Shown: positions 4,500 through 63,891 of the stretch, piece after piece
Position numbering within the stretch: the stretch's first letter is position 1
How the letters are laid out: each line of letters opens with the position of its first letter
Assembly: GCA_964601305.1 (NCBI GenBank)
Contig: CAZRMW010000003.1
Location: forward strand, 3,116-67,115
DNA: 64,000 bases
Source: an uncultured Candidatus Saccharibacteria bacterium
Lineage (GTDB): Bacteria > Patescibacteriota > Minisyncoccia > JAHISW01 > Tagabacteraceae
Direction of reading: 5' to 3'
Made by a program: the position numbers and the translations under genes
Notes under the pieces: model-generated
Database searches by the model: none
The model's input: only the letters and a program-made list of their open reading frames with translations
Told to the model about the DNA's origin: nothing

Positions 4500-4542
4500 A
4501 AAAATAGCTGGAGATTTAATAGAAAAATAAAAAAATAAATTT

Positions 4543-6651: not shown

Positions 6652-8145
6652 ATGCAAATAACCAAGACTGATTATTTGGAATATACTTACTGTAGGAAAA
6701 ATCTTTGGCTTAAGAAACACAAGTCGGAGCTTTTTGAGGGTGTGGAGCTTTCTGATTTTGAAAAGAAAATTATTGAAGAGGGGAACATTGCCGACGAGGA
6801 AGCGAGGAATTTGTTTGCGGGCGGGGTTTTGGTTGAGTCTGTTGGGCAAAAAGCTGTTAGCGATACAAAAAAAATATTGGAGGAACAGGGGAAAACTGAA
6901 ACGATTTTTCAAGCTACTTTTAGCGAAAACGTTTTTTATATCAGAGCGGATGTTCTTAAATACAATAATGTGTTGGGAGGCTGGGAGTTGTACGAGGTTA
7001 AAGCTTCTAACGATGTTAAGTTAAAAGTACCTCATCATTATGTAAACGATTTGGCTTTTCAGAAATTGGTAATAGAAAAAACTGGGATTAAAATTGTTAA
7101 ATCAAGCGTTATTCATTTAAACAAGAGGTATCGCAAGATGGGCGAGATTAATCACCAAGAGCTTTTTGTGTTTGCTGATCTTACAAACGAAGTGAATGAA
7201 GCGCAGGAAAAAGTTCAGCAGCAAATGCTAGATATTAAACAATACTTAAGTATGGATGAAGAAAAAGGTTGTGAGTGTTTGTCTCGTGGAACTAATAGCC
7301 AATGCACAACTTTTAAATATTCAAACCCTAAGGTTCCCGAATATTCGGTGCATGATATTTGTCGAATTGGGGCAAGTAAAAAGATTTTTTATGACTGGAT
7401 TGATAGAGGCATTTATTCGCTTGATGATATTGATAATCCAGAGGTGCTTACTGGAGCTAAACTAGCTCAATACAATGCTTGTATGAAGGGCAAAGCTCTT
7501 ATTGATAAGGAAAATATTAAAAAAGAGCTGGAAAAATTGGTTTTCCCATTGCAGTTTTTTGATTATGAGGGATTTGTTAGTGCTATCCCTGCGTTTGATA
7601 ATTTTGGTCCATATGAGCAAATTCCGTTTCAATATTCACTTCATGTGATGAAAGAAGATGGAAGTATAACTCATAAGGAGTTTTTGATAACTGAACCATC
7701 TGGAGACTTGACGCTTCCGCTTGTTCTGCAAATGAAAAAAGATATCGACCCTAAGGGGACCGTTGTTTCTTGGTATAAAACCTATGAAAAACAAAGAAAT
7801 GAAAAGCTTGCCAAATTGCATCCCGAGCATGCTGATTTCTTAAACGAGATAAATGAAGGAATGTACGATCTTATGCATATTTTCTCAAAGAATTATTATG
7901 TCGATCCTGCTTTTAAAGGTAGTGCAAGCATAAAGAAAGTTTTGCCTGTTCTTGTACCAGAACTGTCTTACGCTAATATGAATATCTCAAAAGGAGATCA
8001 AGCAAGCGAAAGATGGGAAAAAATGATTTCAGATAATAGTTCTAAGGATGAAAAAGAAAAGATTGCTAAGGATTTGCTTGAATATTGTAAACTCGATACT
8101 TTGGCGATGGTTAAAATTTATGAAAAACTGAAAGATTTGAGCTAG
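6652..8145 (+). CDS. DUF2779-family protein: Cas4-like PD-(D/E)xK nuclease with Fe-S cysteines and a C-terminal RNase-H-like domain
   Basis: The N-terminus MQITKTDYLEYTYCRKNLWLKKHK is typical of DUF2779. An ELYEVK (ExK) motif is present. Cys arrangement is one N-terminal Cys plus CECLSRGTNSQC, as in Cas4-like 4Fe-4S nucleases. The C-terminal half carries FDYEGF. Confidence 0.7.
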   Translation: MQITKTDYLEYTYCRKNLWLKKHKSELFEGVELSDFEKKIIEEGNIADEEARNLFAGGVLVESVGQKAVSDTKKILEEQGKTETIFQATFSENVFYIRADVLKYNNVLGGWELYEVKASNDVKLKVPHHYVNDLAFQKLVIEKTGIKIVKSSVIHLNKRYRKMGEINHQELFVFADLTNEVNEAQEKVQQQMLDIKQYLSMDEEKGCECLSRGTNSQCTTFKYSNPKVPEYSVHDICRIGASKKIFYDWIDRGIYSLDDIDNPEVLTGAKLAQYNACMKGKALIDKENIKKELEKLVFPLQFFDYEGFVSAIPAFDNFGPYEQIPFQYSLHVMKEDGSITHKEFLITEPSGDLTLPLVLQMKKDIDPKGTVVSWYKTYEKQRNEKLAKLHPEHADFLNEINEGMYDLMHIFSKNYYVDPAFKGSASIKKVLPVLVPELSYANMNISKGDQASERWEKMISDNSSKDEKEKIAKDLLEYCKLDTLAMVKIYEKLKDLS

Positions 8146-8584: not shown

Positions 8585-9136
8585 ATGTTGATATATATTG
8601 CTCTTATTATTGTGGTTGCTGGTTTTTCTTTGATGTTTCTGTTGTTTGTTTTGGAGCTTGGCAAAAGATTGAGAAAGTTGGAAAAAGAGCAAGAAGAAAA
8701 TATTTTAGAACTTTGTATAGCGCCGGTAAATAAAAAAGTTGAAGAAATAAAATTTTTAAGAAGGATGACCTCCGGAGCCGTTGGCTACGATATAATAGCA
8801 AACGAAAGAGTGATTGTCCCTGTGGGGCAGTCAAAAACCATAAAAACAGGTTTTGCTACTGCTTTTACTGAAGGCTTTGAAGCAGCTATCAGAGGAAGAA
8901 GTGGGCTCGAAGCAAGATTTCACATGCTTAAACTTGGAGGAACAATAGACCCAGACTATAGGGGCGAATGGATAATTACACTTCTTAATTTGGGTTTAAA
9001 GCTTTATGAAATAAAAAAAGGAGACAGGGTTGCGCAAGTTGTTTTTCGCAAAGTTTATTTTCCAAAAATGAAAATAGTGAATAAATTACCAGACACAAAA
9101 AGAGCAGGAGGCGGATTTGGAAGCACAGGGAAATAA
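8585..9136 (+). CDS. dut: dUTP diphosphatase (dUTPase); the true start may be the internal ATG at 8765, preceded by an AAGGA SD
   Basis: dUTPase motifs are present: AVGYDI, GTIDPDYRGE and RAGGGFGSTGK. The first 60 aa of the long ORF are hydrophobic and coiled-coil and may be an extension or an artefact. Confidence 0.8.
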   Translation: MLIYIALIIVVAGFSLMFLLFVLELGKRLRKLEKEQEENILELCIAPVNKKVEEIKFLRRMTSGAVGYDIIANERVIVPVGQSKTIKTGFATAFTEGFEAAIRGRSGLEARFHMLKLGGTIDPDYRGEWIITLLNLGLKLYEIKKGDRVAQVVFRKVYFPKMKIVNKLPDTKRAGGGFGSTGK

Positions 9137-9332
9137 AACAAGAGAAAAATTAGACGCCATAAAAGGGATTGAGATCAGGTGTTTTAAATGCAACAAAATT
9201 ATCGGGAAAATTCAAAACGGGAGCTTAATTTCAAAGGGCGTTTCTTATATCTGTTATTTGTGTAGATCTAAACTAGAAAAAACTCAAAGAGAAGATTCTT
9301 TTGGATTTTTTGGTATGAAAAATCCTTTTTGA
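9117..9332 (+). CDS. small zinc-ribbon protein (CxxC...CxxC)
   Basis: The sequence CFKCNK ... CYLC is present, and the ORF overlaps the dut stop by 20 nt. Confidence 0.35.
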   Translation: MEAQGNKTREKLDAIKGIEIRCFKCNKIIGKIQNGSLISKGVSYICYLCRSKLEKTQREDSFGFFGMKNPF

Positions 9333-9424
9333 CAATAAATACTCAGAAAGGTTTAAAAGCCTGCGGCTTTGTGTCGCGGTTTTTTTGTTTTATTAACAAG
9401 AAATGCTAAAATAAATTTATTTGC

Positions 9425-9453
9425 TATTGACAGATAGATAGTGGTATGTTAGT
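9425..9453 (+). promoter_or_regulatory. sigma70-like promoter (TTGACA-N17-TAGTAT)
   Basis: It lies upstream of the 9515 small ORF. Confidence 0.4.
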
Positions 9454-9514
9454 ATTTAGGAAGACTTGAATCATTAAAAGCCCTAAACCTTTCGGGTCGG
9501 GCAAGGAGGAAAAA

Positions 9515-9670
9515 ATGGCTTTAAAGTGTCAGGATTGCAGAGGGGAATTGGATCTAGGGAAAGAAACTCAGGTAAAAAAAATTGAAGGAAGTTTTACTAA
9601 ATCAGTTGTTCCATGCAGAAAGTGTGGGAAATGGTATACCTTGCAAGGAGAGCTAGTGGAAGTGAAGTAA
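9515..9670 (+). CDS. small zinc-ribbon protein (51 aa; CQDC...CRKC)
   Basis: The protein is MALKCQDCRGELDLGKETQVKKIEGSFTKSVVPCRKCGKWYTLQGELVEVK. A strong SD (AAGGAGG) sits 6 nt upstream. It is absent from the ORF track because it is shorter than 60 aa. Confidence 0.45.
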   Translation: MALKCQDCRGELDLGKETQVKKIEGSFTKSVVPCRKCGKWYTLQGELVEVK

Positions 9671-9678
9671 TTTCTCTT

Positions 9679-10764
9679 TTATTTTTTCCCTATTTTCAAG
9701 CTTTTATAACTCGTTTTTTTGACGAATTGAGGTTCGTCCCAGAGCCCTGCGTCTTGCAGGGCTTTTTTCATTTTTGCATTATCAAAACTAGTTCTTTCTT
9801 GCAAAACTCGTGTTAAATAGCCGTTTTCTCCAAAAACACGCTCTATATGCTCCTGGTCCATAAAGGCGTTTATAGAGCCCTGGAGAGCCTTTATTTGCTT
9901 ATTATTTTGGCTATTTTGCTCTTTTAGCGATAAATACTGGTTTATAAGGTTTTCCACCTCTTTTTCGTCTATTTTTTCCTTGTCTTTGGCATATAAATGC
10001 ATAAACATCGGGCATTTTTTTTGGTATCCACACCAGTCGCAAAGAGCCGATGGGGTAGGGATGAATTCCTCTTCTTTTCCTATTATGTTTTCAATTTCAT
10101 TTATAATTTCTAAAATTTCTTTTTTTGTGTTTTCTAAATCTTCGGGGTTTCTTTGTGTTTGGATTTTTTCATTATGTTTCAAAAAGTAGAGAGACAATTT
10201 TATGTTTTCGGGTTTTATATGTGGCCATTTTTTTAGTAGTCCAAGATTATAAATAGAAAGCTGAAGATCTTTATCTAATATATCTTGAGAGGGGATTCTT
10301 TTAGCAGTTTTATAATCTATGATTTCGTAAGTATCGTTTTTAGGGTCTTTGTCTATTCGGTCTATGATACCCGAAAGTATGTGCTCCTCTCCATTTTTTT
10401 CGTCTTTAATTGGTACTCCGAAGAAAGACTCAAGCTCTAGGGGATTGAAGTTCCAGGGGAGATTTTTTTTGTAAAAATTTTTTATTATAGTTACACCTTC
10501 TTTGAAGTGCGCATCTGTGTGTTCGGGTGGCAGGTTTTCTATTTCTTTTACCGACTTATACCAAACGTCGGAAAATATATTTATTAATTCATCGATGGTG
10601 GGGTAGAGGGGAGTGCGCTCAAATATACGTTTTAATATAGAGTGCACTATCGTACCAAAAACAGCCTCGACAGACTTCGGGGTTTTTATCTTGTCTAGCG
10701 TTTGGTATTTAAATTTTAGTGGACAAGTTTTATATGTATTTAGCGCTGAATAAGAAACTCTCAT
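9679..10764 (-). CDS. PD-(D/E)xK nuclease superfamily protein (Cas4/RecB-like exonuclease with Fe-S cluster cysteines)
   Basis: The N-terminus carries YKTCPLKFKY, the core IIDYKT motif is present, and the C-terminus carries CDWCGYQKKCP (3 Cys), giving the Cas4/AddB-type 4-Cys arrangement. Confidence 0.7.
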   Translation of the reverse strand: MRVSYSALNTYKTCPLKFKYQTLDKIKTPKSVEAVFGTIVHSILKRIFERTPLYPTIDELINIFSDVWYKSVKEIENLPPEHTDAHFKEGVTIIKNFYKKNLPWNFNPLELESFFGVPIKDEKNGEEHILSGIIDRIDKDPKNDTYEIIDYKTAKRIPSQDILDKDLQLSIYNLGLLKKWPHIKPENIKLSLYFLKHNEKIQTQRNPEDLENTKKEILEIINEIENIIGKEEEFIPTPSALCDWCGYQKKCPMFMHLYAKDKEKIDEKEVENLINQYLSLKEQNSQNNKQIKALQGSINAFMDQEHIERVFGENGYLTRVLQERTSFDNAKMKKALQDAGLWDEPQFVKKTSYKSLKIGKK

Positions 10765-10870
10765 AGAAGTATCTTAGCAGGAGACTCCGATGCTTCGATC
10801 GAAGCAGGCTGTGGATAACTCAAACTAATAAACGACGCACAATATACCTTTTGCGACACTGGGCAAGAAA

Positions 10871-10935
10871 AATAAAACCGGCGGAGTGTGTTGCTACTAC
10901 CCTGCCGGCTTGCCTCGCTTGGCGAGGTTTGTTTT
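10871..10935 (-). terminator. intrinsic terminator for the 10971-11372 gene (tandem GC hairpins CCTCGCCAAGCGAGG and CCGGCAG...CCGCCGG followed by a T-run on the minus strand)
   Basis: Read on the reverse complement: ...CCGGCAGGGTAGTAGCAACACACTCCGCCGGTTTTATTTTT. Confidence 0.5.
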
Positions 10936-10970
10936 ACTTTTCAACGATTTATTTCTATTTTAGAGGTACC

Positions 10971-11372
10971 CTAGGTACTCTCTTTTTCTTTCTTAAGTGC
11001 GCCTAACGGATATTTTCTACCGCTATGAAATTTTTTTGTAAATTTTCCAGGATCTCCAAAAACCGCTGAACATTGATTGCACTCAAAAACTGGTTTGTAC
11101 CTAGCAAACACCTTCCGAAGAGAGGGATCTTCTAAAATACCTGAAATTCTATATGCGGTGTTTTTTCTTTCTTCGCTTTCAATATCGTTTCCCTGATTAC
11201 CACAAACTGGGCAAACAAAATCCATATCTGCTGCAGTTTTCTTTTTTATTGGTGGGGATTTATATCTTATATTTTTTCCCCACCACGAAGGTTCTCCCAT
11301 TGGGCTCATATTAAATCTCCTTTTTTCTGTTGAGTTAAATTTCTCAAATTCTAAAAATAGAGTAGCACACAC
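10971..11372 (-). CDS. hypothetical zinc-ribbon protein
   Basis: CPVCGNQGN ... CNQC motifs are present. The protein is 133 aa. Confidence 0.45.
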   Translation of the reverse strand: MCATLFLEFEKFNSTEKRRFNMSPMGEPSWWGKNIRYKSPPIKKKTAADMDFVCPVCGNQGNDIESEERKNTAYRISGILEDPSLRKVFARYKPVFECNQCSAVFGDPGKFTKKFHSGRKYPLGALKKEKEST

Positions 11373-34333: not shown

Positions 34334-34804
34334 CTAGCGCTTGCTCCATTGTGCAGCTTTTCTTGCTTTCTTTAGTCCAAACTTTCTTCTTTCTTTCGCT
34401 CTAGGGTCTCTTGTTAGGAAACCTTCCGGTTTTAATATTAGCCTAAATTCTGGATTGAATTTAAGGAGTGCCCTGCTTATCCCCAATCTTATTGCTCCAG
34501 CTTGCGAACTAATTCCGCCTCCCTTTACTTTTACGCTTATAAAAAAGTTTTTTAAAACTTCAACTTTTTTAAGAGGGGCTTTTACTGTATCTCGAAGCTC
34601 TTTAATTGGTAGATAAGTTAACATTGCTTTGTCGTTTATTAAAACATCTCCTTTTTTGCCTTCAGTGGGTTTCTCAAAAAGCCTCACTCTTGCAACAGAG
34701 CTTTTTCTCCTTCCCACAGCTTCAAAGTACTTTCCGCCAGCTGGCGAATTTTTCTTCTTTCTTGCCCCGCTCGGCGGGGTTGTTTTTTCTTTTTTTTCTG
34801 GCAT
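34334..34804 (-). CDS. rpsI: 30S ribosomal protein S9 with a ~25-aa N-terminal extension containing an in-frame GC-rich palindromic element
   Basis: GRRKSSVARV ... the C-terminal AAQWSKR is the S9 signature. The extension [18 protein letters not shown] is encoded by the GC-rich hairpin GCCCCGCTCGGCGGGGT at 34763-34779. Confidence 0.85.
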   Translation of the reverse strand: MPEKKEKTTPPSGARKKKNSPAGGKYFEAVGRRKSSVARVRLFEKPTEGKKGDVLINDKAMLTYLPIKELRDTVKAPLKKVEVLKNFFISVKVKGGGISSQAGAIRLGISRALLKFNPEFRLILKPEGFLTRDPRAKERRKFGLKKARKAAQWSKR

Positions 34805-37728: not shown

Positions 37729-38112
37729 TTATTTTTTATCAGCCTTTCTTCTTCCGCTAGTCATCGTCCTACGACCCTTGTAAGATCTATTTGTTCTAGA
37801 ATTTGTCTTTGTTCTTTGACCTCGTACTGGTAGCTGTCTAGAATGCCTACCTCCTCTGTAGGTTTTTATATCTTTTAATCTCTTTATATTACCCAAAACA
37901 TCTCTTCTTAAATCTGCCTCTATTCTTTCTTTTTCTACCAAAAGTCTGATTTTGTTTTCTTCTTCTGAAGTAAGATCTTTTACTTTTTTGTCAAAAGGAA
38001 CTTTTACTTCTGTAAGAATTTTTTGCGCGCTAACTTTGCCTATTCCATAAAAATAAGTAAGAGCAATCTCTAATCTTTTGTTTTCTGGTATGTTTACTCC
38101 TGATATTCGCAT
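37729..38112 (-). CDS. rpsM: 30S ribosomal protein S13
   Basis: The N-terminus [25 protein letters not shown] and a basic C-terminus are present. Confidence 0.9.
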
Positions 38113-38299
38113 GTGTTTAAAATTAACGAGCGAAGCGAGTATAATTTTTTACACCCCGCCCTTTTATATCTTTTCTTGGTTTTTAATTATTACTATTTTT
38201 AATACTCATATTCTTTATTTGCAATACCTCGCTTCTGTGTATAAGGGCGGGGTAAAGGTTTGCCTACGAAATTTTTTACAAAATTTCGGGCAATTCGCT
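38113..38299 (+). repeat. ~187-bp repeat element copy 1 filling the rpmJ-rpsM intergenic gap (internal long-range inverted repeat CACCCCGCCC...GGGCGGGGT; promoter-like TTTAAA-N18-TATAAT; 3-prime hairpin GCCTACGAAATTTT..AAAATTTCGGGC)
   Basis: It aligns end-to-end at about 75-80% identity with 41668-41858. It begins at the nucleotide after the rpsM start codon. Confidence 0.6.
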
Positions 38300-38416
38300 T
38301 TACTTCTGTCTTTGTTTGTGTTTAGGATTTTTTCGGCAAATAACCACAACTCGACCCCTGCGTCGCGTCATTTTGCAATCCTTACAAATTTTTTTAACTG
38401 ATACTCTAACTTTCAT
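38300..38416 (-). CDS. rpmJ: 50S ribosomal protein L36
   Basis: The reverse-complement ORF encodes [38 protein letters not shown], which is 38 aa. It is not in the ORF track because it is shorter than 60 aa. Confidence 0.85.
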
Positions 38417-40413: not shown

Positions 40414-41667
40414 TTAGTTAACTATTTCTTCAATTCTTATTTTAGATTCTTTTTCTGGAAAAAATCTCCACCATGATGGACTAAACACAATAGAAGCATG
40501 GTCTATAGCCGGATAATTTTTAAATACTTCTTCTAGTCTTTCTGGCGAAGCTATAAGAGCTTCTTTTAGCTTAGCTTCGTCTAGTATCCAAACAAAATTT
40601 GCATTACCACTAAGCTTGAAAACCATACTCTGTTTTTCTTTGTCTAGGCTTATCAAATCAAAATCTAATTTTTCTAAATTATTTATTTTTACTTTTCCTA
40701 ACATATCTTCGCCTAAATATTTTCCTACTAAAATTTTAGACAAAATATTTTCTGGAATGAGAACGGCATAAAGTGTACCAGTTTCTTTTATTTTAAATTC
40801 TGGGTTTGTAGAAATTAAGTCTGTGCTATTTTGAGCTTCGTTTTCAGAAAAAGTAATTTGAATAGCGCCACTATAAAGTAAAAATCCTTCGGGTTTTTTC
40901 TCTACAGCCTTTTCAAGAAGCGCTGTTCTTATGGATGCTTCTAGAGAATTTTTTAAATTATTAAAATCACTGTCGCTAACTACTGGTACTTCCCCACTAA
41001 AACCTCCTGCCATAGTGGTTTTACTTCTAGCATAAAATTTTTCATAGCGAGGCCCGCCCTTAAATCCAGGAATAGTAAAATCAGTAAGCTCTTTGTTATA
41101 TTCTTCTCCTGGTTTGTCTGCATATACTACTGCTTCTATCGAGCTCGGTTGCACCTCTCCATCGATTATTTTTGCCCCAGGAACTATTATTGATTTTTTG
41201 ATACGATAAATTTTTCCATCTGGGGCTTCAAATCTTGTGGTAGCAATAAGTTTTTGAGACTTTGAGCTAAAACTATTATAAACAACGATTGTACCACTTG
41301 CTTTGGTGGCAATATTTTTTACACCAGTGGCTTGTGTGGAATTTTCTTTGGTAACTTTTATTTCCATTGTTTCAAATGGCACATCAAAAAACGCTGTTTT
41401 ACCAGACTTTACAAGAGTATCTATACTAACAACTTCCTGATGAAGAGTAATTTGAATAATGGCTTTAGCAAAAAATCCTACTGTTTTTGCAGATAAAACA
41501 ACAACAAGAAACAAAACAACTAGACCAAAAATTATCTTTCCTTTTTTCATTTTTTTAAACAAATCATTGTCACGATTCTTTCTTACTCTTTTTATCGGCT
41601 CATCGAAAAAGTCTCTTTTTTTCTTTCCTTTTTTTATTATAATATCTTCTATTTTTGGTTTAGGCAT
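40414..41667 (-). CDS. hypothetical membrane-anchored protein (basic N-terminus, single TM, large extracytoplasmic domain)
   Basis: The protein is 417 aa. An N-terminal Lys-rich segment precedes a TM helix. I recognise no family. Confidence 0.5.
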   Translation of the reverse strand: MPKPKIEDIIIKKGKKKRDFFDEPIKRVRKNRDNDLFKKMKKGKIIFGLVVLFLVVVLSAKTVGFFAKAIIQITLHQEVVSIDTLVKSGKTAFFDVPFETMEIKVTKENSTQATGVKNIATKASGTIVVYNSFSSKSQKLIATTRFEAPDGKIYRIKKSIIVPGAKIIDGEVQPSSIEAVVYADKPGEEYNKELTDFTIPGFKGGPRYEKFYARSKTTMAGGFSGEVPVVSDSDFNNLKNSLEASIRTALLEKAVEKKPEGFLLYSGAIQITFSENEAQNSTDLISTNPEFKIKETGTLYAVLIPENILSKILVGKYLGEDMLGKVKINNLEKLDFDLISLDKEKQSMVFKLSGNANFVWILDEAKLKEALIASPERLEEVFKNYPAIDHASIVFSPSWWRFFPEKESKIRIEEIVN

Positions 41668-41858
41668 GCTTGAAAATTAATGAACGAAGTGAATATAATT
41701 TTTTGCACCCCGCCCTCTTAATATTTTTTCTTAATTGTTAATCTTTATTATTTTTATACCTATTTTTTAATTACAAATCCCTGCTCTTGTGTGTGAGGGC
41801 GGGGTAAAGGTTTGCCTACGAAATTTTAAATAAAATTTCGGGCAATTCTTCTTTATTT
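41668..41858 (+). repeat. ~190-bp repeat element copy 2 (TTGAAA-N18-TATAAT promoter-like box, CACCCCGCCC...GGGCGGGGT inverted repeat, 3-prime hairpin plus U-rich tail), beginning right after the start codon of the 40414-41667 gene
   Basis: It is a paralogue of 38113-38299 with the same orientation, antisense to the flanking minus-strand genes. Confidence 0.6.
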
Positions 41859-49356: not shown

Positions 49357-50562
49357 TTATCTATTTTTCCTTACTTGTTTTATTGCAAATCTATGCGCTT
49401 CAGCATCTACTTTTAAAAACAAATCTTTTTGTGCAGAAAACATTTCTCGTACAGATTTTTTAAGTTTGGCGCTAAAAATTATATTATAATCTTTAGCCGA
49501 AGATTGTGAGTGCTTCCCTGCTTTAGAAATACCAACTACTGGTATTTCTAGATTAACATTTTTTAAAATTTTTAAAAAAGTATTTACTTGTTGCCTTCCC
49601 CCATCTACCACAATTATGTCTGGGTATTGCCATTCTTTGTGTTTTAGTCTTCTTTCTAAAACTTCTCTAAGTGCCCCTGTGTCGTCTCCCACTCCAGCAC
49701 TTTTTATTTTAAAAAGTCTATAATCTTTTTTACTAGCTTTTCTGTTTATAAAAACTGCCATCGATCCATAAACATCTCCCTTCCCAAATTGAGAAATATC
49801 ATAGCCTTCTATTCGCATAGTACATATTTTATGCGATCGCATTATTTGTGTACTATGTGGTATTAAAACGATGTCGTCTAAAAACTTCCTGTTAGTTTTT
49901 GGGTTTTTGCTCTTTAAAAATCTTATAAGCCCACGGATTATTTTTTTATATTCTTTAGAGTTTATTTCCCTTGTACACACTCCAGCACATAATCCAATCT
50001 GATTGTGGAAGCAGGGCTTACCCCCCTCGGCGGGGCTTGCCAGAGGCACGCATGTACTGTACGGATAAATTCTCCTTGCTACACTCAAAATATTTTTTAA
50101 TTCTCTTACGCTCTGAAATGGCCCCACTAAATTTTTTGGCTTCCCCGCCGAGCGGGGTAAACCATATTTTTTTAAGTCTCTTTCGCGAACTACCACGGGC
50201 TTGGGGAAATCTTTATTCATATTAAAAAACAAATAGACAAAACTTTTGTGGTCTTTGTCTTTTATATTGTATTTTGGCCAATACTTTTTAATTAAATTAT
50301 TCTCAAGCACCGCCGACTCCAGCAAATTGTTGGTCTCTACAAAAGAAACTTTCTCTACCTCCCCCACAAACTGTTCCACCGGCCTTCTGTTGGAGGTCCG
50401 ACTTCCAACAGATAGAAAGTAGGAGGAGATGCGGGTTTTTAGGTTGGCTGCGCGGCCGACATATATTACCTTTTTCTTTTTATTTAAAAACAAATAAACC
50501 CCTGTCTTTTTTGGCAGTTTTTTCAAAAAATCCTTATTTTTATTGACTTTTATTGACTTCAT
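49357..50562 (-). CDS. uvrC: excinuclease ABC subunit C, short form (GIY-YIG domain plus RNase-H-like endonuclease domain; no (HhH)2)
   Basis: The N-terminal GIY-YIG is GVYLFLNKKKKVIYVGRAANLKTRISSYF. The C-terminal DAEAHRFAI is present. The protein is 401 aa. It contains two CCCCGCYSGGCGGGG hairpin elements. Confidence 0.75.
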   Translation of the reverse strand: MKSIKVNKNKDFLKKLPKKTGVYLFLNKKKKVIYVGRAANLKTRISSYFLSVGSRTSNRRPVEQFVGEVEKVSFVETNNLLESAVLENNLIKKYWPKYNIKDKDHKSFVYLFFNMNKDFPKPVVVRERDLKKYGLPRSAGKPKNLVGPFQSVRELKNILSVARRIYPYSTCVPLASPAEGGKPCFHNQIGLCAGVCTREINSKEYKKIIRGLIRFLKSKNPKTNRKFLDDIVLIPHSTQIMRSHKICTMRIEGYDISQFGKGDVYGSMAVFINRKASKKDYRLFKIKSAGVGDDTGALREVLERRLKHKEWQYPDIIVVDGGRQQVNTFLKILKNVNLEIPVVGISKAGKHSQSSAKDYNIIFSAKLKKSVREMFSAQKDLFLKVDAEAHRFAIKQVRKNR

Positions 50563-55041: not shown

Positions 55042-55065
55042 AATTTTTGATTTTAGTTTGCCTGC

Positions 55066-55093
55066 CCGCCTCAATGCGAAGCTTTGGGCGGGA
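55066..55093. repeat. GC-rich palindrome CCCGCCTCAATGCGAAGCTTTGGGCGGG in the uvrB 5-prime UTR
   Basis: It shares TGCCCGCCTC with the in-frame palindrome in xth (63722-63762). Confidence 0.45.
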
Positions 55094-56811: not shown

Positions 56812-57408
56812 TTAGTTTTTTATAATTGCAACAACCCTAGGAATATTTACAGATTTTTTTGAAGAAACCCTTAAAGAACAAAACTTATCCATTAATCTGT
56901 GGCCAACCCATTCATAATCTACATATTTTCCAAAAAGGAGACTTTTCCCAATAAAATTAAGCCAATCACTCTCTGTTAACAACTTCGTACCAAGATAATG
57001 GTATGAATTTCCAGAGTTTAAAACAACCCCTTCTTTTTCTTCAGTTTCATACAAAAATTCAAGAATTTTTAATAAATTTTCGTTTGAAACAGAGCACCGA
57101 AAATCGATCATTGGTATATGAAAAATTTCCTTATCTATTTCTACTTTTGAAGATAAAGCTAGGGCATATCCATCTTTCAAACAATTATCAGTATATTCAA
57201 TAGCTCTACTCAAAATATCTTCTCTTCTCAACACAAAAACTCCCTCTGTCCTTGTTTCTCTATGGTAAAGTAGTCTGGAAACATAGGAAGAAATTTTTTT
57301 CTTTTTGCTTTTGCCAAAACGATATGTCTTAAATGTTAAATATGAAATTTGCGTATTTTTCAAAAGAAAGTATTGAACAGCTTCTATAATATTGTCGCCT
57401 ATTTTCAA
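56812..57408 (-). CDS. hypothetical protein (weak resemblance to archaeo-eukaryotic primase small-subunit motifs)
   Basis: HIPMIDFRC and LNSGNSYHYLG resemble AEP motifs I and II. The match is degenerate and the confidence is low. Confidence 0.3.
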   Translation of the reverse strand: MKIGDNIIEAVQYFLLKNTQISYLTFKTYRFGKSKKKKISSYVSRLLYHRETRTEGVFVLRREDILSRAIEYTDNCLKDGYALALSSKVEIDKEIFHIPMIDFRCSVSNENLLKILEFLYETEEKEGVVLNSGNSYHYLGTKLLTESDWLNFIGKSLLFGKYVDYEWVGHRLMDKFCSLRVSSKKSVNIPRVVAIIKN

Positions 57409-57528
57409 AGTAAACCTCCTTTTTTTCTTATCTTTAAATAAAAACTAACAAACTGAGCAAAAATGTAAAGTGTCAAGATTGTTTTAAAAAATTCAAAATG
57501 GTAATTTATTAGAAGAAAGATTAAATCC

Positions 57529-58077
57529 TTGAAAACTAACCCAAACAGGAAAATATGGAGGCAACAAATGTCAAAACCCAAACTTTATTTTGCGCATCCC
57601 GTAAATACTTACGGGAAACCGATTGAGGCTAAGATGTTGGAGTTGATTGAAATTGCTTTTCCGCAGTTTGAAATTGAAAATCCGAATCAGCCACACCACC
57701 AGATTGGCTACAAAAAATGGAAAGAACGAACTGGAAACGGAATGAGGTATTTTTATGAAGTAGTTTTGCCAAATTGTGAAGCCGGCTCTGTGGCAATGCC
57801 TTTTCTAGATAAAAAACTTGGCGCTGGAGTTGCTGGTGAAATAATTTGGTACCTTAAAAGAAATAAAAAAATATTTCTAATATCAGCTCCCGATTTGGAC
57901 TGGGTGAGACCGTTTTTCAAAGAGGAAAAGGATCTTCTCCTCCAGTGGGACAAACTCAGAAACAAAAGCGAAAGTGTCGGAAACAGCCTTGTTTTGAGTA
58001 TTAAAGATACCCGCAAAAGAACCTGGGAAGTTCTTTACAAAGAAATGAGAAAATACAGCGAAGCACACCTCGTATAA
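57529..58077 (+). CDS. hypothetical protein, nucleoside 2-deoxyribosyltransferase-like fold (probable start at MSKPKL, ~57568)
   Basis: LYFAHPVNTYG ... GAGVAGEIIWYLKRNKKIF resembles the NDT/DUF4406 flavodoxin-like family. The resemblance is weak. Confidence 0.35.
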   Translation: MKTNPNRKIWRQQMSKPKLYFAHPVNTYGKPIEAKMLELIEIAFPQFEIENPNQPHHQIGYKKWKERTGNGMRYFYEVVLPNCEAGSVAMPFLDKKLGAGVAGEIIWYLKRNKKIFLISAPDLDWVRPFFKEEKDLLLQWDKLRNKSESVGNSLVLSIKDTRKRTWEVLYKEMRKYSEAHLV

Positions 58078-58216
58078 AAAACACAAGAAAACCCGGAGAG
58101 CAATACGCTCTACTGGGTTTTTGTTTTTTTAACAAAGAACTCTAAACCAAAGATCCTTGTAGTGTCAATATTTTTTTAAAAAAACCAAAATGATATTCTA
58201 CTAGGAGAGTTTAATC

Positions 58217-59419
58217 TTGAACCTTGAAGCATCACTAAGCAGAACAAAAAGGAGGTCTGACTTGGAAATTTTAAAACCAAAAGAATATTTTTTGCTGTTT
58301 ATTGTTTTTTTTGCTGGAGTAATATCTATTGCTACAAGCAACAATCCTCTTGTATATGCCCAACTAATGATTTTGGCTTTTTGTCAAAATATTGCTTTTT
58401 CTTTGGTTAGTAGATCAAGAAACAGGGACAATAACAACTATCATTTAATCGCTGCTGTTGGAAGTAATGGTATCTGGTTTCTTACAATGTCTTATATGAT
58501 TAGCCAAGGTATGCCTATTTCTATGCTTGTTCCTTTTTTGTCTGGAACAACATTAGGAAGTCTTTATGGCGCACACATTTCAAAAAAAATAGAGTTTTGG
58601 ATAGGACTAACAGCAGATGCAACAAAAAATACTGCTCAAATATCTGAGTCTTCCTTCTTTAAAAAATATATATTGTTTTTATGTTTGGGAGCAATTGCTA
58701 TTTCTTATTTAGGCTTTTCTGAAAACACACAAAGTCTAGCTTGGCTTATGCTTCTCTCTTGTGTACAAAGTATCGGTTTTGGTCTGTCTAGTAGAGCTGG
58801 AAATAGAGGAAGCCAAAACTATTTTATTTTTACAAAAATATTTAGCATAACTTTTTGGTTTTTGACTTTTGGTTATCTTGTTACCAGAAATATGCCTCTT
58901 TCTCTATTTGTTCCCTACACCGTTGCAACTGTATTTGGAAGTATTACTGGAGCACAAGTTTCCATGAAAATTGAAAGATTTTTCGGCTTCAAGCCAGATG
59001 AACATGTTTCTATTGGAAGTGTTGAAAATATAGAATCTCTATTTAAAGAATGGTGGCTTTTTACAACGATAATCTTTGCTGGTTTTTGTTATATCATCTT
59101 CGCGCCTTCTTCGATAAAATTAGCTACGATGTTTTTTGGAACACTAATTTTTGCAACAGAATCCATGTCTTTTGCAATTGCAAGCAGAGCTGGAAACAGA
59201 GATAGTCTTTTTTATCACTTGTGTACAAGGCTCGTAAAAGGAACTGTTTGGTTTTTTACGATTGAATATACTGTTATTCATAATATGTCTATTGATATTT
59301 TGGTTCCTGTTGGACTAGGAATGGTTTTAGGAAGTGTGCTTGGACAAAAGATTGGTATGAAAATCGAAGAAAAAATTGGTGCTGTGATGGACATACCCAT
59401 GAAGCCCAAAAGAGTTTAA
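58217..59419 (+). CDS. integral membrane protein built from three tandem ~110-aa 4-TM repeats
   Basis: Three internal repeats share SRSRNRDNNNY / SRAGNRGSQNY / SRAGNRDSLFY, each followed by TM helices and a ...GAxxSxKIE motif. Confidence 0.55.
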   Translation: MNLEASLSRTKRRSDLEILKPKEYFLLFIVFFAGVISIATSNNPLVYAQLMILAFCQNIAFSLVSRSRNRDNNNYHLIAAVGSNGIWFLTMSYMISQGMPISMLVPFLSGTTLGSLYGAHISKKIEFWIGLTADATKNTAQISESSFFKKYILFLCLGAIAISYLGFSENTQSLAWLMLLSCVQSIGFGLSSRAGNRGSQNYFIFTKIFSITFWFLTFGYLVTRNMPLSLFVPYTVATVFGSITGAQVSMKIERFFGFKPDEHVSIGSVENIESLFKEWWLFTTIIFAGFCYIIFAPSSIKLATMFFGTLIFATESMSFAIASRAGNRDSLFYHLCTRLVKGTVWFFTIEYTVIHNMSIDILVPVGLGMVLGSVLGQKIGMKIEEKIGAVMDIPMKPKRV

Positions 59420-59493
59420 ATATAAAAACCCCGGGGAGCGTAATACTCTCTCGGGGTTTTAATTTATTTTTTCCAGTCATCCGACCGGAGACA

Positions 59494-62400
59494 CTATGCC
59501 GGGTTCGGCAGATAATCTTCCCAATTAAATGGACGTGGATTTGTTTCCACAAAATCTTTAATTACATCGTAAGGCAATACTCTCCAAAAAACAGGTCCGC
59601 TATCAGGGCCATCTACAGGAACGCCCAGAAAAGAGACTCCTGTATTATTTGGAGCAAAACCATTTTCCCCATAAGCGTCTGTATGGACTGCAGCTGGGGA
59701 CATTTGATAGATTGCATGGTCAGTACTAATTCCGCTAAAAAAATGCTTGTCTCCAAAAAATTTAAGGACAGGAAGTTTCCTGTTCCAAATTCTACTATAA
59801 TTTCCTCTTCGAAGATCTTTTTTAACATGTCCCTTTAGTGGATCGCCCCATCCAGCCATATTGGTGGGAGCGGAGCGAATTTCTATACCATATTCATGTT
59901 TCCCTTCTACAGAAATTATTCCCCAACCAATACAAGTTTTTCCGTACACGGGAGCGAGTACATGTTTGCCAATAAACTTTTTTTGATCTCTCCATTCATT
60001 TGTTTGAAGAAGAAGATCTCTCAATCTCATCGCATAAAGGGGACCTTCTATCATCTCTCCATCAGTAGTTCTGGCGAAATGATTTCCAGTACCAATATTT
60101 ATAAGGCCTATATTTCTGGAATCGTACCCTCCAAATTCTGGAACAGTAATCTCTCCAACACTGAGCACTCTTACTTTTGCACTTTGTGATCTTCTTAAAA
60201 TTGCGCTAAAAATATCTAAGTTCGGTTCTATATGCCTTTCCATCATTTGCATAAGCTGACTAAGTAAATAATCAGTCCCTCTTTTTTCAAACTGGTAAAG
60301 AGCCAATTTTCGAATTTCGTCAGCTGCTTGTAGAACATCTTCTTTCTTTCTCAAACTCATTGCTTGCCTCAAAAGATCTCCTGTATTTTTTTCTATACGA
60401 TCATACGACATTTCATGAGGGTGTGGTTCTGTACGATATTTTACATTTTGAGCCTGAGTAGGATCGTCTGGAGAAGCAAGAAAATGAATTGGCATATTAT
60501 TGCCTTCACAAAGACCCTGTTGTCTCATCATATGAAATACAGCTTCAGCCATACTTAAACGCACAGATACACCATTTACGTTTACCCAAAAGAATTCCTT
60601 AGATCTCCCCCCCCAATGGTGATCAGAGCAAATCATAAACCACAAATTCTTGGAGCTACGTGCATAAACAGCAGCCCCCTTAGTTTTTTTTGTTACCAAC
60701 GACTTAGGGTAATTTTTAAAAGCCTCAAGTGCTTTGACAGGAATCTCTTCAACATCAAGCACTCCATTACTACAACGCAACCTAATAACACCCGATTTAA
60801 ACATTCTGTTGTAAACTGCTTTCATAATGGGGTGATCTTTCGTTCTTAAAGAACTTCTTTGTGAACGAATAAACTCACCATCAATAGCTATAGGAGCCAC
60901 ACAAACACCCATAGAATCTCTCTGCCCATCATGGTCTATCTCACGACCAGTCATTCTTGTCTGAAGCGACCAAGGGTGACAAATTACGACCTGGTCAGGA
61001 TTTTTTTCTCTCAACACATCTGGCGCATAAGTATTAGCGTAATCGTTTAACAAGCCATCAGTTACCCTCAAATGAGAAGGTATATAAATTTTTATAAGTT
61101 TATCATTAATTTTTAAGTAACTCGTACCTTCTCCTATAACTTTGGAGTTAGGAATTGCGGATTCAATTTTTTGAACAACAACACTGTAAACATGTTTAAA
61201 AAATCTACGAGACTCCTGACTAGCAACATTGCTTACAATGGTAATGGAGCGCTGATATTCTAAGGACTCCAGTTCGATATTTTTTTCTCTAAGGTCTTTT
61301 CTGGCTTCTTTTGTATCTCCGTCGACACTAGCAATTTTACCCAGTTTGCTTTCGGCTTCTTTACAAGATTTTCTGAAAGTTTTAATTGCTTCATCTAGTC
61401 TTTTTTGCTCTCTTAACGTACAACGCCATATTTCCCAATATGTAACAGCAGAAATAAAGGCAAGCTCATTTGCACCAATAACAACAAAAACTGGCCCACT
61501 ATATTCAGGTCTTTCTGTTTTATTTTTTGTTTCTTCGGCTGGTATGGTAAAAACGTTGATCCACCCACCAAGAACATCATTAACCAATTCTTCTGTGGTT
61601 CTATAAGCAACTTTATCCAATGGCTTTTCTGTAATTATTCCTTTCACTATCTGCCTATAAATCTTGTCTTCAACAAGCTCTGGATTGATGTTGTCGCCCA
61701 AAATTTGAGCACGTGCTGTTTTTGCGGGCCCACCAGCTTTCTTTAGATCAAAACATAAAAAGTTGGTGATAATGACTGCAGAGTCTTTACGCATTTCAGC
61801 ATCACTAAGAGCTTTTCTTGCAGTATTCCCAACAATATCTGGTCCATGCATTAATCCAAAATTTGCACCATTTAACACAGTGGGTGCCCAATTTAAAGGG
61901 TCTTCTGTTTTTAATACATAAGGATTATTAAAGGTCGATTTAGGAATTTCAAAATTTGGTATACCACTAGTCAAATCCATTCTTCCTAAGCCTTTTAATT
62001 TTTTACCCATTAATTTTTTGCCTCTACCAGAGACTAGGCCACGGTGCCATTCAATTCTTTTTTTAATAAACTCTTGAGGCACATGCGGATAAACTGTCGT
62101 AAAATTTTCAATAATTTCTTCAGTTTTTTCACGCTCTAAATCTTGCCTAACAAAACCCTGAAGCGTACTGTTTAAAGCTTTTTGACGATTCGATAGTTTA
62201 ACAAAAATTAAATCATAAATTTTATTTTTAAACTTTCTCTTGTCTGGCCTGTTGTTTGGAAAGTCTTCCGTAATATTAGCGTGAAGTTTATCAATCCCAC
62301 CTTCTTCCAAAAGAATCCCAGTTTCAACGAGTTCCAAAATCCGAGCATTTACAGTTTTGCTCGGAGCTTTTTTCTTCTCCGCCGCCTCCTTCTTCGCCTT

Positions 62401-62775
62401 CTTTGCATCAGCTGTTTTTGTACTGGCGGGACGTTCTATGTCTAACACTCTCGCTATATTACTGGTCTGTGTTATATTTTCTAATCTATATTTTTTAGTA
62501 ATCTCTGAGACAGGCATTTTACTCTGATAGTCTTTTTTAAAATTCCTTTTTTTCTTTGCGCTCCATTGTGCCAAGATGCCTTTAGTGTCCATTTTAAGAC
62601 CCTCAAAATGTCCTCTTCGTTCAAATGCTTTTCTGACACTCTCTACTGTCCGACCAAAGCAACAACTTTTCTTATCCTTAACTGCTTTCTTCATCTTCTT
62701 ATATAAATCAGAGCGAGTTTTACATCCCTTCCTTATTCTTTTAAGTTCTACTTCATCATATTTTTTATATGCCAT
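59494..62775 (-). CDS. large hypothetical protein (1093 aa) with a lysine-rich N-terminus and no recognisable P-loop; GC content (~40-45%) elevated relative to flanks
   Basis: It is one long uninterrupted ORF with a basic N-terminal ~150 aa (KKAKKEAAEKKKAPSK). I recognise no family. Composition is atypical for the window. Confidence 0.55.
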   Translation of the reverse strand: MAYKKYDEVELKRIRKGCKTRSDLYKKMKKAVKDKKSCCFGRTVESVRKAFERRGHFEGLKMDTKGILAQWSAKKKRNFKKDYQSKMPVSEITKKYRLENITQTSNIARVLDIERPASTKTADAKKAKKEAAEKKKAPSKTVNARILELVETGILLEEGGIDKLHANITEDFPNNRPDKRKFKNKIYDLIFVKLSNRQKALNSTLQGFVRQDLEREKTEEIIENFTTVYPHVPQEFIKKRIEWHRGLVSGRGKKLMGKKLKGLGRMDLTSGIPNFEIPKSTFNNPYVLKTEDPLNWAPTVLNGANFGLMHGPDIVGNTARKALSDAEMRKDSAVIITNFLCFDLKKAGGPAKTARAQILGDNINPELVEDKIYRQIVKGIITEKPLDKVAYRTTEELVNDVLGGWINVFTIPAEETKNKTERPEYSGPVFVVIGANELAFISAVTYWEIWRCTLREQKRLDEAIKTFRKSCKEAESKLGKIASVDGDTKEARKDLREKNIELESLEYQRSITIVSNVASQESRRFFKHVYSVVVQKIESAIPNSKVIGEGTSYLKINDKLIKIYIPSHLRVTDGLLNDYANTYAPDVLREKNPDQVVICHPWSLQTRMTGREIDHDGQRDSMGVCVAPIAIDGEFIRSQRSSLRTKDHPIMKAVYNRMFKSGVIRLRCSNGVLDVEEIPVKALEAFKNYPKSLVTKKTKGAAVYARSSKNLWFMICSDHHWGGRSKEFFWVNVNGVSVRLSMAEAVFHMMRQQGLCEGNNMPIHFLASPDDPTQAQNVKYRTEPHPHEMSYDRIEKNTGDLLRQAMSLRKKEDVLQAADEIRKLALYQFEKRGTDYLLSQLMQMMERHIEPNLDIFSAILRRSQSAKVRVLSVGEITVPEFGGYDSRNIGLINIGTGNHFARTTDGEMIEGPLYAMRLRDLLLQTNEWRDQKKFIGKHVLAPVYGKTCIGWGIISVEGKHEYGIEIRSAPTNMAGWGDPLKGHVKKDLRRGNYSRIWNRKLPVLKFFGDKHFFSGISTDHAIYQMSPAAVHTDAYGENGFAPNNTGVSFLGVPVDGPDSGPVFWRVLPYDVIKDFVETNPRPFNWEDYLPNPA

Positions 62776-63048: not shown

Positions 63049-63891
63049 TTATTTTAAAGTCAATTCTATCGGACAATGGTCTGAACCCATAATGTCTGAT
63101 AAAATTTCCGTAGATTTTACGTTTTTTACAAATTCTTTGGATACGAAAAAATAATCAATCCTCCACCCTACATTTCTGTCTCTTGCTCTGCTTTTCATAT
63201 CCCAATATGTGTAAGCCTCTTTTTTGTCTGGATAAAAGTGGCGGAAAATATCTACATAACCTTTTTTAATAACTTGAGTTATCCACAGGCGCTCTATCGG
63301 TAAAAATCCAGTATGTTTTTCGTTTGCTTTTGGTCTAGCCAAATCTATTTCTTCGTGCGCCGTATTTACATCTCCACAAAAAATTATGCCTGCCCCGCCC
63401 GGCGGGGGTTTTTTTCTAAGTTTTTCGACATATTTTAAAAACGCATCATAAAAATCCATTTTATATTTAAGTCTTTCTGGTCCCATCCCCCCGTTTGGAA
63501 AATAAACATTTAGTAATACAAAATCTTTAAAATACAAAACAAGTATTCTTCCTTCTTTATCGAACTTTTCTATACCTATGCCGTACTCTACTTTTTTTGG
63601 CTGCTCTTTTGTGTAAACAGCTACACCACTATAACCTTTTTTAACTTCTGAAGATGAAAAATACGCATGGTACTTATCCACAACCCTAATTTCTTCTGAA
63701 AGTTGCGTCTCATTTGCTTTTGCCCGCCTCGACTCGCTGTCGTTTGTCGACGCGAGGCGGGTTTCTTGAAGGCACAAAATATCTGGATTTTGTTTTTTTA
63801 TAAATGGTAAAAGCAACTCTTTTTTGTGAAGAGCTCTTATGCCATTTATATTCCAAGAAATTATTTTCATAAATATTATAAACAAAATCAA
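63049..63891 (-). CDS. xth: exodeoxyribonuclease III (AP endonuclease); probable start at MKIISWNINGIRA
   Basis: WNINGIRA ... LCLQET ... CGDVNTAHEEIDLARPKANEKHTGF ... GSDHCPIEL are ExoIII motifs. Two GC-rich palindromic elements lie in frame (PPPGGAG, RLASTNDSESRRAKA). Confidence 0.8.
   Translation of the reverse strand: MILFIIFMKIISWNINGIRALHKKELLLPFIKKQNPDILCLQETRLASTNDSESRRAKANETQLSEEIRVVDKYHAYFSSSEVKKGYSGVAVYTKEQPKKVEYGIGIEKFDKEGRILVLYFKDFVLLNVYFPNGGMGPERLKYKMDFYDAFLKYVEKLRKKPPPGGAGIIFCGDVNTAHEEIDLARPKANEKHTGFLPIERLWITQVIKKGYVDIFRHFYPDKKEAYTYWDMKSRARDRNVGWRIDYFFVSKEFVKNVKSTEILSDIMGSDHCPIELTLK

Follow-up and report, generated by a model that had tools for sequence, protein, structure and literature searches.

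GC-rich palindromes inside xth of an AT-rich Patescibacteria genome: probable in-frame insertions of a dispersed, REP-like hairpin repeat

Repetitive extragenic palindromes (REPs) are short GC-rich stem-loops of 20 to 40 bp with a conserved tetranucleotide at one end. In Di Nocera et al. 2013 (PMC3733652), REP stems are given as 5 to 13 bp and loops as 2 to 20 nt, and a fraction of REPs is described as lying inside open reading frames (ORFs), where they encode in-frame peptides. According to the same paper, intragenic REPs are concentrated in UvrABC and other repair genes, a bias that its authors doubted was due to chance and noted in Proteobacteria, Verrucomicrobia, and Rickettsia. It also reports that the Escherichia coli REP-associated tyrosine transposase (RAYT) binds REPs as single-stranded DNA and cleaves at the tag (GTAG), and it classes some Rickettsia palindromic elements (RPEs) as CGTC REPs; RPEs lying in frame in Rickettsia are described in PMC10969869. 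Here we analyze a 64,000-nucleotide stretch of DNA (referred to as the window) from an uncultured Candidatus Saccharibacteria bacterium (assembly GCA_964601305.1, contig CAZRMW010000003.1, positions 3,116 to 67,115), in which xth, the gene for exodeoxyribonuclease III, carries two GC-rich palindromes. A first-pass annotation, made from the sequence alone, had proposed that both are in-frame insertions. Going beyond it, we found that (i) the short palindrome is one of a dispersed repeat family, also represented in uvrA, twice in uvrC, in rpsI, and in other Patescibacteria, and (ii) in-frame palindromes of REP type in repair genes had already been described.

The window averages ~34% G+C, and almost every gene to the right of ~10 kb, xth included, is on the minus strand (Table 1). 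The Xth product matched NCBIfam TIGR00633 over its full length (309.6 bits against a cut-off of 99, E-value 1.7e-92) as well as Mth212 (PDB 3g91, 8.5e-89), and it keeps every invariant residue of a 62-sequence alignment (e.g., N9, E36, D167, N169, H172, D239, D264, and H265). The short palindrome, GCCCCGCCCGGCGGGGG, was found at 63392-63408, just where it had been reported, with the hairpin proper at 63393-63407 (CCCCGC, loop CCG, GCGGGG). The long palindrome was also found, but its reported span of 63722-63762 was one base too wide at each end; it occupies 63723-63761 and consists of 39 nt, with 9-bp arms CCCGCCTCG / CGAGGCGGG around a 21-nt center. When read on the minus strand in the xth frame, the short palindrome gives KK-PPPGGAG-IIFCGDVN and the long palindrome LCLQET-RLASTNDSESRRA-KANE, in agreement with the peptides assigned to them in the first-pass annotation. 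The short and long palindromes are referred to below as inserts A and B, respectively.

Comparison with homologues was used to gauge whether the palindromes had been added to the gene. A homologue search over 5.8 billion proteins returned as its best 119 matches Patescibacteria Xth proteins that were 58 to 70% identical to the query and mostly 253 to 258 aa in length, compared with 273 aa in the window. Among the 120 best matches, the alignment columns for RLASTNDSESRRA and PPPG were filled by the query alone, and alignment to Mth212 left gap-opposed query segments of 13 and 4 aa exactly at the two palindromes, positions that are short loops in the canonical enzyme. Insert B amounts to exactly 13 codons, which is the length of the palindrome, and its deletion gives the ...QET-KANE... 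found in every orthologue. It is placed two residues past the invariant E36 of the LCLQET motif, a Glu that corresponds to the metal-binding catalytic glutamate of ExoIII/APE1. Insert A adds 4 aa relative to the common LRKK-G-KK-IIFCGD and 6 aa relative to the closest orthologue. In an AlphaFold2 model of Xth (mean predicted local distance difference test [pLDDT] score of 81.6), insert B formed coil following strand 31-35 at a pLDDT of ~53, a low confidence, while insert A formed coil between helix 131-153 and strand 161-168. Both checks proposed with the original claim, alignment to known structures and a screen of the gene in relatives, therefore favored it: the inserts fall in coil between secondary-structure elements, the insert-free gene is general, and equally long segments were not seen at these positions in the orthologues. 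Thus, both palindromes are confirmed as lineage-specific in-frame insertions.

Seven Xth orthologues had inserts of their own near residue ~153-159. At the same loop, the orthologues P0023 and P0033 carry PKTPKGARTG and PKPSKDGRA, respectively, encoded by DNA with no clear palindrome; these segments may be decayed or unrelated. P0033 (L006 4582-5487) was further found to have a 105-nt (35-aa) in-frame insert at residue ~101, the ends of which are 13-nt inverted repeats (CCCCATTAGAAGC ... GCTTCTAACGGGG). This is a longer coding palindrome, similar to a MITE (miniature inverted-repeat transposable element) or an RPE, and it too lies in an Xth gene.

A census of the window detected nine GC-rich hairpins with a stem of at least 6, compared with 0 to 3 in ten dinucleotide shuffles, none of which produced a GC-rich stem above 6. 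Insert B, at 77% G+C in a 34% G+C genome, folded at -15.1 kcal/mol (z = -4.1), and none of 200 shuffles was as stable. The short hairpin was unexceptional inside its GC-rich 31-mer (z = -0.95); its significance instead derives from its membership in a repeated family. This family has a unit of ~18 to 21 nt, CTTG-CCCCGC-TCG-GCGGGG-T, in which the tetranucleotide CTTG at the 5′ end is followed by a short hairpin without mispairs and then by a brief tail; four of the nine GC-rich hairpins have the stem CCCCGC/GCGGGG with a 3-nt loop. When the window was searched with the 20-mer CTTGCCCCGCTCGGCGGGGT at three or fewer mismatches, six matches were identified where 0.00 were expected (Table 1), corresponding to ~0.1 copies per kb. 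Between the rpsI and uvrA copies, the identity extends over 24 nt. Rfam, applied to the whole window at its gathering threshold, identified one tRNA only and no RNA family over the hairpins.

Table 1. Coordinates of xth, its inserts, and the related hairpins of the window.
Feature	Coordinates	Strand	Basis
xth (exodeoxyribonuclease III) coding sequence, 273 aa, with both inserts	63049..63870	-	TIGR00633 1.7e-92; Mth212 8.5e-89
Insert A, diverged copy of the 20-mer family, 3 mismatches, codes PPPGGAG	63389..63408	+	Mismatch search; hairpin 63393-63407
Insert B, 39-nt GC-rich imperfect palindrome, 13 codons (RLASTNDSESRRA) between LCLQET and KANE	63723..63761	.	Hairpin census, fold, alignment
uvrB-leader hairpin with a GC stem (CCCGCC and GGCGGG around a 16-nt loop); in common with insert B, TGCCCGCCTC; with insert A, GCCTGCCC	55065..55092	.	
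rpsI (S9) copy, exact, in frame in an N-terminal extension	34761..34780	+	20-mer search
uvrA copy, exact (CTTGCCCCGCTCGGCGGGGT), in frame in the N terminus (KTPPSGARK), just past the uvrB stop codon	53158..53177	+	
uvrC copy, 3 mismatches, in frame, LPRSAGK, 6 aa longer than closest orthologue	50142..50161	-	
uvrC copy, in frame, ASPAEGGK, 3 mismatches and one broken stem pair, 5 aa longer than closest orthologue	50017..50036	+	
Intergenic copy (CTTGCCTCGCTTGGCGAGGT), double-sided C-G to T-A change, stem kept	10909..10928	+	

The repeat family also bears on the alternative that the Xth segments are ordinary lineage-specific loop expansions with a coincidental palindromy, or else errors of assembly. 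Loop length at these positions does vary in a few other Xth orthologues; however, neither six family matches against an expectation of 0.00 nor the 24-nt identity between rpsI and uvrA is explained by chance, and genes of other Patescibacteria contain the 20-mer in its exact form. In addition, xth with both palindromes was recovered in four independent assemblies (L001-L004), and their agreement indicates that the palindromes are not assembly artefacts. This alternative is scarcely credible and is effectively refuted by the repeat-family evidence.

A caveat raised for N-terminal REPs in PMC3733652 applies to the rpsI and uvrA copies, and we considered whether they could be 5′ untranslated region behind miscalled start codons. 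This was rejected, as the S9 copy lies outside the conserved core with no ATG, GTG, or TTG between the hairpin and the core, and uvrA would need a non-canonical start; since usable downstream starts were not available, both copies were treated as coding. The resulting UvrA N terminus is 8 to 10 aa longer than that of the syntenic UvrA of two relatives (L091 and L093). The two uvrC copies, gauged against 120 UvrC orthologues, are inverted with conserved UvrC coding sequence between them. At the second site (the ASPAEGGK loop), 22 to 27 of the 120 orthologues have inserts of their own, such as TGCCTGCCCGCCGGTAGGCAGGGC in L091 and TTTGCCGGCGGGCAAA in L093. Permissive loops that are filled here are thus occupied in other orthologues by palindromic inserts of another kind. 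In terms of gene content, five of the six coding copies reside in uvrA, uvrC, or xth, which together represent 11% of the coding DNA (P ~1e-4). Without the ascertained xth copies, three of four remain in uvrABC (P ~0.004). An alternative to repair-gene enrichment is simple clustering of the copies within 49-64 kb (P ~0.003).

Two further observations concern the surroundings of these copies. UvrC (49357-50562), like all 120 of the closest Patescibacteria orthologues, is ~380 to 420 aa in length, while the NCBIfam UvrC model has 574 positions; GIY-YIG, UvrC_M, and RNase-H-like domains were recognized and no Pfam domain was recorded past these, so the C-terminal part of the protein appears to be missing. 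The region of ~9100-11000, which holds the intergenic copy at 10909 and a PD-(D/E)XK nuclease gene (9679-10764), resembles a replication terminus: gene orientation flips there from plus to minus, and the cumulative GC skew peaks at ~10 kb.

The exact 20-mer was used to scan 185,579 species genomes, GTDB representatives that do not include the source genome, and 41 loci were identified, including ~32 in DNA of 56 to 75% G+C and nine in low-GC DNA. A metagenome scan added more copies (~23 of 39 matches in high-GC DNA), and a viral scan gave one match, in DNA of 71% G+C, that was taken as chance. High-GC matches were set aside because a GC-rich 20-mer is expected there by chance. Seven of the nine low-GC loci were in records titled Patescibacteria (three contigs, one metagenome-assembled genome), Saccharibacteria (two contigs), Tagabacteria, and Parcubacteria. 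After de-duplication, the low-GC DNA held 17 independent exact 20-mers with no flank similarity past ~1 to 2 nt; the repeated unit is therefore ~20 nt, and the sites it occupies are non-homologous. TTG was present on both sides of the 15-nt palindrome in five of the 17 copies, and TTR in nine; the shared TTG may reflect a 3-nt duplication or a target preference. No diverged extra copies were detected in 226 kb of carrier loci. The genes that carry the 20-mer in frame encode ribosomal protein L4 (TPPSGAS), tryptophanyl-tRNA synthetase (TrpRS), Fpg, a NiFe-hydrogenase-like protein, a CAP-domain protein, KsgA (ACPARRG), a fusion of MiaB and MiaA (NPAERGK), and, with the unit in opposite orientation, IscU (LAPLGGV). 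The TrpRS copy corresponds exactly to a 6-aa gap relative to PDB 6dfu. Both orientations were observed and five of the six possible reading frames were used in genes, with TPPSGA(S/R) the most common peptide. Outside the window, a repair gene (Fpg) accounted for only one of the nine coding contexts.

Other copies lie at tRNAs or at a gene junction. In L035 (titled Saccharibacteria), the 20-mer at 6165-6184 abuts the 5′ end of tRNA-Pro, and in L062 (1044-1100) it lies in the D-loop of a truncated tRNA-Lys duplicate just upstream of the intact tRNA-Lys. In L083 (181-200), two glycosyltransferase genes meet exactly at the 20-mer; the frame upstream reads through it stop-free, and a GTG at its 3′ edge could start the downstream gene. 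L035 also has, at 7420-7449, a second GC hairpin (GCCTGCCCGCC..GCGAAGC..GGCGGG), which overlaps the start of a tRNA-like sequence that was not called by ARAGORN.

Filled and empty versions of the same site were compared in L4. The L4 of a Tagabacterium was filled, while 117 of 120 orthologues were without the segment. An empty sister (84% identical) reads ...AAA ATA AAA GAA CCC / AAA ACA AAA, and the filled allele reads ...AAA TTA ACC CCG CCG AGC GGG GCA AGC TTC GCA AAG ACA AAG, a net gain of 18 nt. Two more orthologues, each ~71% identical to all others, were filled at the same codon. One of these has CCTCGC...GCGAGG, a double-sided change that keeps the stem and is the same variant as in the intergenic copy of the window; the other (P0124) has four C-to-T changes, all on the sense strand. 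Covariation was modest (2 cells, equalled in 22 of 500 shuffles). The filled orthologues are polyphyletic, scattered among empty lineages that are equally distant, which means that the unit either entered this one site more than once or was precisely lost several times. Small inserts were also observed at two other L4 loops in the orthologues P0167, P0187, P0141, P0191, and P0226 (PAPSASRR, LAPSASR, PAKGGQ, SAKGGSASGG, and STKGGSASGR), whose composition hints that they may also derive from GC-rich palindromic DNA.

Several properties are consistent with tolerance of the elements in coding DNA. The 20-mer, insert A, and insert B are each stop-free in all six frames. Net insert lengths were 18, 18, 18, 15, 12 to 18, and 39 nt, and the peptides produced are rich in Pro, Gly, Ser, Ala, and Arg. 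All inserts with a known or modelled structure were located in loops or termini.

Some properties of the hairpins would also fit a selected function in cis, whether as structures in the mRNA that adjust its translation or stability near the start of a gene (rpsI, uvrA, and the uvrB leader) or as intrinsic terminators that keep antisense transcription out of these minus-strand genes. Three elements are at most ~50 nt from a start codon; the double change keeps the stem in two independent copies; the four sense-strand C-to-T changes of the P0124 copy preserve G-U pairing in the mRNA; and on the plus (antisense) strand T-rich runs follow the copies at 34761, 53158, 63389, and 10909 in a terminator-like arrangement. 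However, copies in other genomes have no T-run after the hairpin, and on this ground the antisense-terminator role was rejected; the T-runs of the window follow from the Lys-rich (AAA) coding flanks. Moreover, both orientations and five reading frames are represented among the copies, which sit beside tRNAs or at differing positions in genes that are unrelated to one another; orthologues manage without the hairpins; and aged copies decay at about the rate of their flanks. Selection as cis-elements is an unlikely explanation of the family. The element itself is more probably selfish or neutral than of service to xth.

The identity of the 20-mer in lineages titled as different classes was also considered in light of DNA uptake, in which the 20-mer would be the recognition signal of a conserved Patescibacteria DNA-handling system and would have accumulated by biased uptake and recombination and not by transposition. 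The element is itself an inverted repeat, and its location in coding DNA, in permissive frames and in poorly conserved protein regions, is as known for uptake signal sequences (USS) and DNA uptake sequences (DUS). Counter to this idea, USS/DUS number hundreds to thousands at a density of ~1 per kb, whereas the 20-mer is found about once per 10 kb in the window and once per 8-kb locus elsewhere, roughly ten times too low. Its copies are fixed-length net insertions and not point-mutational matches, and no uptake receptor was linked to them. We regard an uptake signal as very improbable and retain the insertion of a mobile repeat as the better account of the short unit.

Insert B is less directly related to the 20-mer unit. 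Neither the window nor 290 kb of related low-GC loci contained a second copy of it; nor did the viral collection, where scans with the B arms and with GCCTGCCCGCC..GGCGGG returned only loci of 46 to 66% G+C that were taken as chance. The reported sharing of an arm with the hairpin of the uvrB leader was reproduced, with TGCCCGCCTC at 55063-55072 and again at 63721-63730. That hairpin sits 24 to 51 nt upstream of the uvrB start codon, which was placed at 55041 because the NCBIfam match begins at ORF residue 61. Insert B, and possibly the leader hairpin, could have originated locally and not as copies of a mobile family, either through template switching or snap-back synthesis at a prior short inverted repeat or through nested insertion and duplication. 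The single-copy status of insert B in everything searched would suit such an origin, as would the tandem-like CTCGA-CTCGC and asymmetric bulge of its left arm, which slippage would give, and the fact that insert B and the leader hairpin have 10 nt in common and no more. On the other hand, a segment of this G+C content is not buildable from the local sequence of a 34% G+C genome, and its boundaries (TTG then CCCGCC; GGCGGG then TTT) mirror those of the family unit. The 10-nt match over TGCCCGCCTC is very unlikely to be fortuitous, with ~0.01 such matches expected in the window by a base-composition estimate, and the 105-nt insert of P0033 demonstrates that longer palindromic inserts occur in the Xth gene family. 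A local origin is rather unlikely in our assessment. Instead, the G+C content, the boundaries, and the 10-nt match to the uvrB leader tie insert B to the same pool of GC-rich palindromes; it is a longer palindrome with related arms and flanks that may have arisen by a related but separate event.

When compared with described systems, the family resembles REPs in being a short GC-rich stem-loop with a conserved tetranucleotide at one end. Its dimensions fall within the REP range at the lower limit (6-bp stem, 3-nt loop, ~20 nt), and insert B fits more comfortably (9-bp stem, 39 nt). REP families are dispersed in tens of copies, and the window family has six in 64 kb. The two differ in several respects: (i) in place of a GTAG or CGTC tag, the unit has CTTG (CAAG on the other strand), with no GTAG/CTAC or CGTC/GACG at either end, and the CGTC of insert B is internal only; (ii) REPs are mostly extragenic, downstream of ORFs, and often inverted dimers, whereas five of the six window copies and most copies elsewhere are intragenic singletons; and (iii) Patescibacteria are not among the host phyla listed in the portion of PMC3733652 consulted. 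REP families have a cognate RAYT gene flanked by the same REP; the window contains no such gene, and a RAYT-like gene in the relative L091 is accompanied by a different hairpin. With RPEs, the family has in common a palindromic repeat placed in frame in unrelated housekeeping ORFs of a small AT-rich genome, where the peptide is tolerated. RPEs are confined to Rickettsia, and those of the RPE-1 type are ~100 to 150 bp (30 to 50 aa), whereas the present units are 18 to 39 nt (6 to 13 aa) in a Patescibacteria host, and the two have no sequence similarity. The GC clusters of yeast mitochondria (GC42; PMC4478555) are likewise GC-rich hairpin mobile units in a very AT-rich genome, and they share with the window family stems that are more constrained than loops, a putative short target-site duplication, and cross-species exchange. 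They differ in residing in an organelle, mostly in intergenic DNA, at ~30 to 50 nt, with an RNA-mediated route proposed, whereas the window family is bacterial and mostly intragenic. MITEs are derived from insertion sequences (IS), have terminal inverted repeats and a target-site duplication, and typically measure 50 to 500 bp; the window unit as a whole is one inverted repeat, in part flanked by TTG as noted above, and is far smaller, with no known parent IS. Literature searches on Patescibacteria, or the candidate phyla radiation (CPR), returned no relevant report of such coding palindromes in the library searched. The window elements are best read as coding palindromes of the REP/RPE type, a known phenomenon, here with an unrelated sequence and in an unrelated phylum.

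Overall, the results indicate that the inserts are very probably in-frame insertions of a dispersed REP-like repeat. A short unit of fixed length has been added at new sites, with orthologous sites left empty, usually with a net insertion of 18 nt, and is dispersed in several copies, with identical ones in distant hosts. Its survival in genes is favored by the lack of stops in six frames, by a net length that is usually a multiple of three, and by small, flexible peptides in loops or termini, and aged copies decay or keep the stem through paired changes. A trans-acting enzyme may recognize the single-stranded hairpin plus the 5′ tetranucleotide; the likeliest candidate would be an IS200/RAYT-type tyrosine transposase (HUH/Y1) whose gene lies in another part of the genome. 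The REP-like anatomy of the unit, together with the cleavage of REPs by RAYT, led us to read the agent as Y1/RAYT-like by analogy, an assignment we hold tentatively and at somewhat less than even odds.

The TnpA transposases of IS200/IS605 elements act on single-stranded hairpins with an adjacent tetra- or pentanucleotide cleavage or target site, generate no large target duplication, and excise precisely. Precise excision of this type would fit the polyphyletic filled and empty states of the L4 codon. A syntenic relative, L091 (GCA_030648925.1), has the gene order yceG, Y1_Tnp, pilin-like gene, uvrB, uvrA, and uvrC, in which a RAYT-like gene (4033-4790) encodes a 228-aa PF01797 protein that matched the REP-associated tyrosine transposase model at 1.3e-8, below the cut-off. 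The hairpin AGAACGAC-TTGCGAT-GTCGTTCT was found on both sides of this gene, and its coding sequence contains a third, loop-inverted copy (NSQNDIASRSDVE) in frame. In Patescibacteria, RAYT-like enzymes therefore do occur together with hairpin copies that lie in frame.

Several points weigh against this account. No transposase was identified in the 64-kb window, either by Pfam/NCBIfam on ~25 ORFs or by tblastn with the L091 Y1 protein, and the L091 hairpin differs in sequence, so the link of an enzyme to the CTTG family is by analogy only. The unit has neither of the tags, GTAG and CGTC, that mark the described REP superfamilies, and its copies are singletons, unlike the inverted dimers thought to be the mobile unit (REPIN, REP doublet forming hairpin). 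The lack of a second copy of insert B in the DNA searched adds to these points. Movement is deduced from orthologues and not from presence/absence polymorphism between near-identical strains. In addition, identity of the 20-mer across classes is unusual for vertically inherited REPs and needs either horizontal transfer or a very conserved enzyme specificity. With these points considered, we still favor, as probable, the complete scenario of REP/RPE-type GC-rich hairpin repeats inserted in the coding DNA of an AT-rich Patescibacteria genome and spread by a trans-acting enzyme.

Other features of the window were recorded. Two related intergenic modules of ~185 nt are present on the minus strand at 38120-38300, upstream of the gene after rpmJ (37729-38112), and at 41665-41850, upstream of a 417-aa ORF (40414-41667). 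Each consists of a conserved GAATTGCCCGAAATTTT..AAAATTTCGTAGGCAA hairpin, ACCCCGCCC, ~90 nt of poorly conserved AT-rich sequence, GGGCGGGGTG, a conserved AAAAAATTATAYTC..TTAATTTT leader, and an ATG. The modules matched no Rfam family at the gathering threshold, and they have a 9-bp GC stem similar to those of the coding hairpins. Between yceG and xth (56812-62775) are an AEP-like primase gene (56812-57408) and three further ORFs (182, 400, and 1093 aa). Pfam matched none of the three, and the 400- and 1093-aa ORFs were also without an NCBIfam match. The block is possibly an integrated element. The left end of the window (25-2805) encodes a 926-aa Eco57I/MmeI-like type IIG restriction-modification fusion protein.

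The genomes of Patescibacteria are tiny and streamlined and are usually described as poor in mobile DNA. Here, a 20-nt repeat is found inside ribosomal proteins, an aminoacyl-tRNA synthetase, and most excision-repair genes, and coding sequence is thus the main refuge of such elements when intergenic space is scarce. For annotation, the PPSGA-type segments of 6 to 13 aa are to be treated as insertions and not as features of the protein family, and masked in CPR alignments, phylogenies, and structure predictions. The association of REPs with UvrABC recurs here in an unrelated phylum with an unrelated sequence, which argues against chance and provides a second test system. Two aspects stand out: the unit is identical across classes, and it recurs in repair genes. 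A more speculative extension, which we consider possible but doubtful, is that one hairpin unit of ~20 nt is currently active across several Patescibacteria classes, kept identical through horizontal spread or a conserved dedicated enzyme, and that it preferentially lands in a small number of tolerant loops within essential and DNA-repair proteins (UvrA, UvrC, Xth, Fpg, L4, S9, and TrpRS), where it would repeatedly insert at a specific site or excise precisely from the same codon. If true, no smaller mobile element would be known to rewrite protein sequence routinely, and the unit would offer an independent, tractable case of the unexplained association between REPs and nucleotide excision repair genes.

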